Below, in pieces: positions 9,207 through 10,188 of a stretch of DNA of 22,290 nucleotides. Location: positions 1 to 22,290 of the IMG/VR virus record IMGVR_UViG_3300020201_000102. One strand, written 5' to 3'. How positions within the stretch are numbered: position 1 is the first letter of the stretch; each line of letters starts with the position of its first letter. Both the position numbers and the translations under genes were made by a program. A model generated the notes under the pieces. That model ran no database searches, was not told the origin of the DNA, and saw only the letters and a program-made list of their open reading frames with translations. This stretch comes from a virus.

Positions 9207-10016
9207 ATGTCAGAAGAGAAAGTGTCACTTTCCACACCCACAGTCGCTCAGCCTGGAGAACAGGGATACGTACCGCCGGCCGCGGCGGTCCCTCTTCCGA
9301 GCAAAGGACGGGTATACCCTTCGGGACATCCATTCCACAACCGACAAGTCGTTGAGATCAAGTCGATGACTGCCAGAGAGGAAGATATCCTCACGTCTCG
9401 GGCCCTGATCAAGCAGGGGAAGGCTGTTGATGCCCTCCTGAAGAGTTGCATCCTGGACAAGACGGTCCAGACGGGAGAGCTTCTCTCAGGAGACCGAAAT
9501 GCCATCATGATCGCCATTAGGATCACTGGCTACGGAAATGAGTACAAGACGAAGGTCGAGTGTCCTGTATGCAATGAGAGCGTCGATCATATCTTCGATC
9601 TTGCTACGCTACCCGTCAAGCAGATGGGAGAGGATCCTCTCGTGGAAGGAGAGAATAGGTTTTCTTTCAAGCTACCGACAATGAATAAGACGGTATCGTT
9701 CAAGTTGACGACAGGCGCCGATGAAACGGAGCTCCTGGCCATTTTCGAGAAGATGAAGAAGCTTGGACAGGGAGACTCGGTCGTGACAATGCGACTGCTC
9801 ACTTCCATCGTCGCCATCGACGGAGAGACGGATCGTAACAAGATCACATCGCTAATCAGGAACATGCCTGCTCGTGATTCACGCGCCCTTCGTCTTCATA
9901 TGGACGCGGTTGCCCCCGGTGTAGAGATGAAGCAACTCTTCTCGTGTCCCTCTTGTGGGGATGAGACGGAGGTGACGATCCCTCTGGGGGTCGAGTTCTT
10001 TTGGCCTGCGGCCTGA
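9207..10016 (+). CDS. T4 gp26-like baseplate-hub or tail-assembly protein with a CxxC...CxxC zinc ribbon
   Basis: GGAG lies 5 nt upstream of the ATG. The blocks LPSKGRVYP....VEIKSMTAREEDILTS and LLSGDRNAIMIAIRITGYGNEY fit my recollection of the gp26 / 'T4_baseplate' family pattern. The cysteine pairs are CPVCNES and CPSCGDE. It lies immediately upstream of the tape measure gene. Confidence 0.6.
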   Translation: MSEEKVSLSTPTVAQPGEQGYVPPAAAVPLPSKGRVYPSGHPFHNRQVVEIKSMTAREEDILTSRALIKQGKAVDALLKSCILDKTVQTGELLSGDRNAIMIAIRITGYGNEYKTKVECPVCNESVDHIFDLATLPVKQMGEDPLVEGENRFSFKLPTMNKTVSFKLTTGADETELLAIFEKMKKLGQGDSVVTMRLLTSIVAIDGETDRNKITSLIRNMPARDSRALRLHMDAVAPGVEMKQLFSCPSCGDETEVTIPLGVEFFWPAA

Positions 10017-10188
10017 GGATCTCGAGTACATATACGAAGAGATCTTTCAGCTGACATACTATTGCCGAGTCGAATACGATTCGGCATGGGATATGCCGGT
10101 GTCAGTCAGGAAGTGGTGGGTCAGAAGGGTGATCAAGGAGAACGAGAGGAAGCAACAAGAGCTTGACAAAGCCAAGCGCAAGAAGTAG
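10003..10188 (+). other. Coding-looking +1-frame extension with no canonical start codon of its own before 10093
   Basis: The +1 frame is open from 9976 to TAG 10186-10188. It encodes GLRPEDLEYIYEEIFQLTYYCRVEYDSAWDMPVSVRKWWVRRVIKENERKQQELDKAKRKK. The only canonical starts in that frame are ATG 10093 and GTG 10099. The T-run 9999-10002 (TTC TTT TGG) is a possible slip site. Confidence 0.4.

Follow-up and report, generated by a model that had tools for sequence, protein, structure and literature searches.

The 22,290-nucleotide (nt) stretch of viral DNA considered here (positions 1 to 22,290 of IMG/VR record IMGVR_UViG_3300020201_000102, hereafter the window) contains a gene related to those for the phage T4 baseplate hub proteins gp26 and gp51. 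Comparative analysis suggests, with a probability that we put at roughly 85%, that this gp26-like gene yields two proteins: a short form ending at the zero-frame stop codon and a long form arising from a +1 slip of tRNA-Phe at the sequence UUU_UGG, close to the gene's 3′ end. A programmed event of this kind, leading to a fusion of 326 amino acids (aa), had been advanced in an original prediction made from the letters of the window alone. The shift site, the domain encoded beyond it, the selection acting on this domain and its homology to naturally fused long forms all agree with the proposal.

Results

A start-less reading frame overlaps the gp26-like gene

Profile comparisons identify the 269-aa product of the zero-frame open reading frame (ORF) as a member of the T4 gp26/gp51 family, PF12322 (T4_baseplate), with a score of 70.1 bits against a cut-off of 24.5 (E-value 2.9e-19; residues 46-266 aligned with positions 13-219 of the 219 in the profile). 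The family scored 69.2 bits in the genome-level search, and the protein also matches phrog_150, "baseplate hub" (E-value 1e-20). Membership in PF12322 bears out the gp26-like identity originally assigned to the gene. The cysteines of two CxxC pairs (C119, C122, C247 and C250) are invariant in family alignments, as is F264. The short form ends in ...GVEFFWPAA*, specified by the 3′ end GAG TTC TTT TGG CCT GCG GCC TGA.

The +1 frame is open from position 9976, following a TGA at 9973-9975, to a TAG at 10186-10188, 22 nt ahead of the tape measure start. The first ATG, GTG or TTG in this frame is the ATG at 10093, 93 nt into the domain that the frame encodes. These coordinates, like the end of the zero-frame ORF and the 194 nt that precede the tape measure gene with no gene assigned to them (10017-10210), are as originally described. 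A slip at UUU_U joins the two frames into a 326-aa protein, which we translated by reading TGGC as a single Gly codon.

Related loci were gathered from IMG/VR, where the window has at least 596 relatives, in two sets of 11 and 80. The larger set came from a search built on a 10-sequence alignment, in which one of two patterns contained the FFWP motif. A hidden Markov model (HMM) constructed from 17 extension peptides detected the domain in each of the 80 loci, always in the +1 frame, with E-values below 1e-3 in 78; one of the two weak matches is cut by the end of its contig. When substitutions were counted in 22 disjoint pairs of loci, using only the part of the extension downstream from the zero-frame stop, they distributed over +1-frame codon positions 1, 2 and 3 in a 164:65:401 ratio (chi-square p = 2e-62). 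Such periodicity argues that the +1 frame is translated and is under purifying selection. By these comparisons, the +1 arrangement is far beyond chance and the extension is recognized as a conserved helical domain of about 55 aa. Scans of the Pfam and PHROGs libraries returned no significant family match for the extension alone. PF20546 (DUF6760) stayed below its cut-off of 27 bits: 24 of 33 extension peptides matched it weakly (best E-value 6e-5), the window scored 13.6 bits and the six-frame matches reached 18.9 and 14.2 bits.

One might suppose that the extension is initiated on its own as a small gene, from ATG 10093 (the 31-aa ORF that had been offered as the alternative) or from a non-canonical start codon close to where the gp26-like gene ends. 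Several isolate records indeed call part of the extension a separate small hypothetical protein, and some loci have an ATG or a TTG in the +1 frame near the junction, e.g., ATG 3228 in L003. However, the domain starts at the Phe-Phe (FF) codons in every locus, its match beginning 14-23 nt ahead of the zero-frame stop in all 80. Initiation at 10093 would lose over half of the domain, and in 35 of the 80 loci no canonical start codon is found upstream of it. The positions of those +1-frame starts that do occur are not conserved, whereas the Gly-Leu that the +1 frame specifies right after the slip codon is. Moreover, the in-frame long forms described below carry this domain covalently linked to the PF12322 domain. 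We consider independent initiation very improbable.

Sequence of the presumptive shift site

The site was defined from a set of 89 distinct junctions, the window's included. Reading the codons in the exit (E), peptidyl (P) and aminoacyl (A) sites and the one that follows, 71 junctions have the sequence TTT TTT TGG CCT, 8 have TTT CTT TGG CCT, 7 are of the window's type, TTC TTT TGG CCT, and 3 are near-variants. All 89 have YTT (Y, pyrimidine) as the P codon, then T, and TGG as the A codon. The slip run is TTTT in 81 and CTTT in 8, both of which allow +1 re-pairing; the P-site Phe codon is never TTC, and the E-site Phe codon is TTC in 8 cases. The zero-frame stop invariably lies 3-6 codons past the slip codon. 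In the window, the E codon occupies positions 9996-9998, the slip codon UUU 9999-10001 (re-pairing at 10000-10002), the A codon UGG 10002-10004 and the first +1 codon, GGC, 10003-10005. Conservation of the overlap in related phages, which the original prediction had left to be checked, is thus seen in the domain of every locus and in the YTT-T-TGG of every junction.

Part of this uniformity is a sampling effect at the protein level, as one search pattern contained FFWP; to judge from the sequences, such bias cannot explain the invariance of the junction at synonymous sites. The longest invariant nucleotide block is TTTGGCC in both alignments, the T completing CCT being invariant in one and nearly so in the other. 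Invariance of the block is attributable to dual coding (frame 0 specifies Trp-Pro, frame +1 Gly-Leu), and this in turn locates the shift at or before GGC. The window uses TTT for 80 Phe codons and TTC for 218 (27% TTT); of its four in-frame Phe-Trp pairs, the one at the junction alone reads TTT TGG. A pyrimidine after UUU is known to make a context prone to shifting (Schwartz and Curran 1997, as cited in PMC3789692).

No purine-rich or Shine-Dalgarno-like element was found at a fixed short distance upstream from the site, either in the junctions or in the nucleotide alignments. A GGAGG is present upstream in many loci, but it lies 15-30 nt away at a variable distance, and its presence is explained by conserved Glu-Val codons. 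Two further candidates in the window, a local hairpin (CGATCCC/GGGGTCG, 9976-9993) and a GGCC-UGC-GGCC element after the site, are not conserved and were judged incidental. The run of four T (9999-10002) and the run of five G (9986-9990) that had been pointed out, with 8 nt between them, are both in place; the G run is not conserved and is probably irrelevant. Since neither a Shine-Dalgarno sequence nor a conserved structure (see Discussion) accompanies the site, the signal appears to be the shift-prone YUU_U together with UGG, the latter read by a single tRNA.

A variant junction, AAC TTT CTA TTC CCT, was observed in L003 (huge phage assembly LR756508; 3213-3515). It contains no UGG and the extension is still in the +1 frame, with an ATG in that frame 26 nt before the zero-frame stop. 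In this locus the shift may take place at UUU_C, or the extension may be initiated independently.

The T-rich composition of the junction raises the question of whether RNA polymerase, instead of the ribosome, slips, dropping one U in the T run so that a fraction of the mRNAs is in frame. Seven consecutive T are present in 71 of the 89 junctions and nine in phage RsoM2USA, and homopolymer runs of such length can support polymerase slippage (reviewed in PMC5009743). Against this, the run in the window is just four T long (TTC TTT T), and interrupted runs (TTC TTT T or TTT CTT T) occur in 16 of 89 junctions with the frame arrangement kept. Furthermore, the invariants are phased by codon (P-site YUU, a U after it and A-site UGG), which fits a ribosomal event and not polymerase slippage, and relatives in Firmicute and Streptomyces phages shift at a single UUU_C. 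On these sequence grounds, polymerase slippage is implausible for the window and for the interrupted runs, and it could add to the yield at the seven-T sites. As the source of the long form we rate it improbable.

The preferred reading, a ribosomal slip, would work as follows. Most ribosomes would read ...GAG UUC UUU UGG CCU GCG GCC UGA and release the 269-aa short form. In a minority of them, peptidyl-tRNA-Phe paired with UUU 9999-10001 in the P site, with UGG waiting in the A site, would move one base to UUU 10000-10002; the ribosome would then read GGC CUG CGG CCU GAG... in the +1 frame as far as the TAG at 10186-10188. The resulting 326-aa long form would combine the 265 N-terminal residues common to both products with a helical domain of 61 residues. 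In the relatives with CUU (8 junctions), the slipping tRNA would be tRNA-Leu, shifting from CUU to UUU just as at the prfB CUU_U.

In-frame long forms and tandem genes

The fused sequence had 4015 matches among 1.84 billion representative proteins, and the best 150 of these were examined. Almost all of these 150 end 3-6 residues past the FF site. Three (P0024, P0083 and P0107) are single ORFs, in-frame long forms that match the window fusion through residues 314-320. The alignments identify the extension as homologous to the C-terminal domain of these in-frame long forms. Two of the latter were traced to their contigs and, in each, the long gene follows a short PF12322 paralogue (L021 and L023; Table 1). 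The short genes of the tandem pairs end in ...EFFWPDTSK* or ...TFFWPNVDA*; their junction reads TTT TTC TGG CCA and the +1 frame is closed. The presence of short and long genes side by side suggests that the L021 and L023 phages encode each form in a gene of its own. A tree of the N-terminal domain places the tandem pairs within the +1 UUU_UGG clade (support 99/96), so the frameshift seems to have been replaced by gene duplication there; T4 gp26 and gp51 pair together on a separate long branch. Allowing that this tree is rooted at midpoint only, and is effectively unrooted, and that its long branches are unreliable, the use of two genes seems to have evolved on at least two occasions.

These genes bear on another explanation, namely that the frame break results from an assembly or sequencing error or marks a decaying gene, the true gene being a single 326-aa ORF, or else the 269-aa ORF with junk after it. 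Sequencing errors are frequent in homopolymer runs, and in a few family members the long form is indeed one in-frame ORF. Yet where the in-frame long gene is present it adjoins a separate short gene. In addition, the same +1 arrangement recurs in 89 distinct junctions from independent metagenomes and, beyond these, in cultivated phages that different groups had sequenced, and purifying selection acts on the extension in its own frame. An artefact or a decaying gene is, in our estimate, extremely improbable.

The structure of P0024, predicted from an alignment of the unmodified pieces, has a predicted local distance difference test score (pLDDT) of 89.7 and a predicted template modelling (pTM) score of 0.85. 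Its extension comprises helices at 259-277, 281-285 and 289-311, a block with pLDDT 90-95, followed by a low-confidence tail. The extension described at the outset as a "charged helix" is thus helical as stated; the model predicts a conserved three-helix domain instead of a generic charged helix. A Foldseek search of the P0024 model against viral models retrieved only gp26/gp51-type "baseplate hub" proteins; against the PDB nothing was significant. The highest PDB probability went to the HK97 chaperone 2OB9, a weak match (E-value 2.2, probability 0.30, TM-score on target 0.45). A profile search of the PDB with the fusion alignment yielded no match at E-value <= 1.

Many extensions (L025-L050, e.g., L028 2240-2503, and the long genes of L021 and L023) are about 25 residues longer than the window's. 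Their tails share a motif, ...H.NTPD.RAL.G..R...P(A/S)(K/R)LRRFT, common to frameshift-encoded and in-frame long forms and lacking in the window. From its sequence, this LRRFT-type tail looks like a docking peptide.

T4 gp26 and gp51

T4 gp26 (208 aa) consists of PF12322 from end to end and stops at the FF site (CPECG...KEFFELL), like the short form of the window. It has no extension, as the stop codon of gene 26 is where gene 25 begins. T4 gp51 (249 aa) has PF12322 over residues 1-201 plus about 48 residues. When the gp51-family profile was compared with the fusion profile, the two were collinear through the junction and the extension (hhalign probability 74%, E-value 2.8e-5), pairing FKLL-NPDE...MIPAERGFVLKLIEKD of gp51 with FFGL-RPED...DMPVSVRKWWVRRVIKEN of the window. 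By this comparison, the two forms appear to be encoded by separate genes in T4, gp26 being the short form and gp51 the long one. The two systems share the protein family, the FF motif at which the short form ends and a tail that aligns with the extension. They differ in that genes 26 and 51 are separate and divergently oriented, involve no frameshift, and neither adjoins the tape measure gene, 29. Both proteins are required for hub assembly, and chaperone roles have been proposed for them (PMC9024508). In precomputed annotations, a newer Pfam family, PF28602, is found on gp51 homologues beside PF12322; presumably it covers the gp51 C-terminal extension.

Direction of the proposed shift in other branches of the family

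The +1 YUU_UGG type dominates the clade formed by the window and its IMG/VR relatives. A +1 arrangement at UUU_Y (single UUU_C or UUU_U) is found in phages SP-15, LIS04, GXN1, HSE3, BRock and LuckySocke. Four jumbo or huge phages have the extension in the -1 frame instead: Agrobacterium phage Atu_ph07 (L109), behind CAT TTT TTC (T_TTT_TTC); Ralstonia phage RsoM2USA (L019), with its run of nine T; Yersinia phage fHe-Yen9-03 (L108); and assembly LR756511 (L110). These members share the family, the FF position and the extension domain with the window, which differs from them by its +1 frame and YUU_UGG signal. The direction of the shift therefore changes within PF12322. Judging from the alignments, the Phe-Phe that ends the PF12322 domain is a U-rich site used in either direction by different lineages.

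None of the 12 annotated isolate regions that we inspected (11 phages, with immuto in two isolates) carries a joined coding sequence (CDS). One CDS is truncated in 11 of them, and in 8 the extension piece is called a separate hypothetical protein (including immuto_232, Mel-JY01 WWT39326, SP15_046, BRock gp135, HSE3 gp075 and LuckySocke 91). A PF12322-like gene of fHe-Yen9-03 (g246c; L108 1420-2295) is annotated as "Lead, cadmium, zinc and mercury transporting ATPase", apparently in error and probably on account of its Cys pairs.

Gene neighbourhood

The window is a 22 kb fragment with an estimated completeness of 11%; related IMG/VR records measure 116-257 kb, and the sole one rated complete is 188 kb long. 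Its gp26-like gene is placed between the tail tube and tape measure genes (Table 1), the position typical of lambda G/GT genes. Five annotated isolates have it in the same place between these two genes. The order tube, gp26-like gene, small ORF, tape measure, or else a large ORF without a label where the tape measure gene would be, is also found in phages immuto (Flavobacterium), SP-15 and HSE3 (Bacillus) and LIS04 (Listeria), as well as in Microcystis phage Mel-JY01, the huge-phage assembly LR756508 and two phages of Streptomyces, BRock and LuckySocke. The large ORF in the tape measure position of Mel-JY01 is labelled only as hypothetical. In all eight of these phages and assemblies the small ORF is in the +1 frame. 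The extension is likewise in the +1 frame in Streptococcus phage GXN1, although no small ORF and no tape measure gene are annotated in its record.

Table 1. Positions of the features discussed in the text (window coordinates unless a locus is named).
Feature	Position	Strand	Remarks
Tail tube protein gene	7227..7718	+	phrog_4542 "tail tube protein", E-value 1e-30; PF06841 weak
gp26-like zero-frame ORF (short form, 269 aa)	9207..10016	+	PF12322; phrog_150
Presumptive shift site, UUC UUU UGG CCU	9996..10007	+	YTT-T and TGG invariant in 89 junctions
+1 extension, 62 codons and TAG (FGLRPEDLEYIYEEIFQLTYYCRVEYDSAWDMPVSVRKWWVRRVIKENERKQQELDKAKRKK)	10000..10188	+	Predicted C-terminal domain of the 326-aa long form
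Zero-frame stop, TGA	10014..10016	+	4 codons past the slip codon; ends the short form
Tape measure gene (1041 aa)	10211..13336	+	phrog_58 "tail length tape measure protein", E-value 6e-19
Tandem PF12322 pair, L021	2089..4044		Short gene and long gene with in-frame extension
Tandem PF12322 pair, L023	2121..3999		Short gene and long gene with in-frame extension

Two other parts of the window deserve mention. The interval 8266-9098 holds a gene for a PTH2-like peptidyl-tRNA hydrolase followed by tRNA-shaped genes with abnormal anticodon loops. Infernal detected three of these (8695-8770, 8939-9014 and 9024-9098), and ARAGORN reported two as "tRNA-Ile (aat)". The array lies directly upstream from the gp26-like gene; a link to the frameshift is unlikely because frameshifting relatives have no tRNAs within 2.5 kb. 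A 282-aa minus-strand ORF (7302-8150) overlaps with the tube gene and the ORFs after it; the low complexity and high charge content of its translation suggest a spurious antisense ORF.

Discussion

In systems of the lambda G/GT type, the short and long forms of the tail assembly chaperone both bind the tape measure protein, and the extension of the long form recruits the tube protein. The gp26-like gene resembles these genes in lying downstream from the tube gene and directly upstream from the tape measure gene, an arrangement kept in spite of sequence divergence, and in having an overlapping start-less ORF and a conserved slippery site a few codons before the stop; in the window this is known from the sequence signature. 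It differs in that the shift would be +1 on YUU_U and not -1 on an X_XXY_YYZ heptamer; the extension is in the +1 frame in 80 of 80 close relatives too. Its product is about twice as large (269 aa), has two CxxC pairs and belongs to PF12322, with no tail assembly chaperone family among its Pfam or PHROGs matches. The conserved frameshift in the tail assembly chaperone genes of long-tailed phages has been documented, as have those of lambda gpG/gpGT and for P2 E/E+E' (Levin 1993; Xu, Hendrix and Duda 2004, both as cited in PMC5009743). By analogy, the two forms of the gp26-like protein most likely constitute a short/long chaperone pair for the hub and the tape measure, in view of the position of the gene between tube and tape measure, the obligatory occurrence of two forms and T4 genetics. 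The two would act together as assembly chaperones for the complex of tail hub and tape measure.

Other +1 sites offer closer parallels for the shift itself. The +1 frameshift site of E. coli prfB, the gene for release factor 2 (RF2), is CUU_UGA_C. There, as proposed here, the P-site tRNA slips from CUU (or UUU) onto UUU, and the CUU UGG C of 8 junctions is one base different from it. The A-site codon is a stop in prfB and the sense codon UGG in all 89 junctions. The window also lacks the Shine-Dalgarno sequence found 3 nt upstream in prfB, and its shift would make a second product instead of serving autoregulation. The yopN-tyeA hybrid of Yersinia, formed by a +1 event, has UUU-UGG as its proposed site (PMC3789692, PMC4914553): the motif is identical, is likewise near the 3′ end of a gene and leads to fusion with a downstream frame, in an otherwise unrelated system, a type III secretion regulator. 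The original prediction had called a +1 event in a gene of this sort unusual. Such events are uncommon, but there is a precedent in the tail chaperone of the haloarchaeal myovirus HSTV-2 (PMC5009743). A +1 frameshift also operates in cps and tsh of Listeria phage PSA (Zimmer 2003, as cited in PMC9024508). In both cases +1 recoding gives a C-terminally extended protein, of the tail module in HSTV-2 and of the virion structure in PSA. The families and sites are different, and each case concerns a single phage or small group, not a site conserved family-wide.

A number of observations weigh against our interpretation. Mutating the yopN UUU-UGG did not abolish the hybrid protein (PMC3789692), so UUU-UGG is not a proven shift site. 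RNAalifold identified zero conserved pairs in 35 loci over 45 nt on each side of the site; with no stimulatory element found, the efficiency of the shift may be very low. The seven-T run present in 71 of the junctions leaves room for a contribution of RNA polymerase slippage there. The chaperone function is deduced solely from gene position and analogy, and the similarity of the P0024 model to the tail assembly chaperone 2OB9 (E-value 2.2, probability 0.30) is not significant. As for T4, the gp51 link, drawn from a moderate profile match with 74% probability, is supported but not firm: the extension-only profile finds neither the gp51 sequence nor the gp51 family profile.

Our literature search found no description of a frameshift in gp26/gp51-like genes, and none of the isolate records that we read mentions one. 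What is new is the +1 YUU_UGG form, its breadth and the two-gene derivatives nested within it. A wider proposal, for which we see about even chances, is that PF12322 proteins are the tail assembly chaperone pair long missing for T4-type phages, jumbo phages and many others with contractile tails. Every lineage would need a short and a long form, obtained interchangeably by a +1 shift (YUU_UGG or UUU_C), a -1 shift (U_UUU_UUC) or duplication. Under this proposal, duplication would have happened at least twice, once giving T4 gp26/gp51 and once the tandem pairs inside the +1 clade.

The findings have a practical side, in that a simple rule could enable gene callers to mend the truncated CDS and the spurious small-protein calls. 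They also make available about ninety natural versions of YUU_UGG, a +1 site in which the A-site codon is a sense codon and no stimulator is recognizable, an unusual situation for bacterial +1 shifting. If the interpretation is correct, the collection would rank among the largest natural sets of bacterial +1 sites with neither a stop codon nor a known stimulator. A single family would be seen to switch among +1 shift, -1 shift and gene duplication at the same Phe-Phe position, and the conserved tail-gene frameshift would extend to a large group of contractile-tailed phages in which it is unannotated. T4 gp26 and gp51, whose functions in hub assembly have so far been vague, would gain a concrete role as a short/long chaperone pair, and T4 would no longer be an apparent exception to the conserved tail-gene frameshift.

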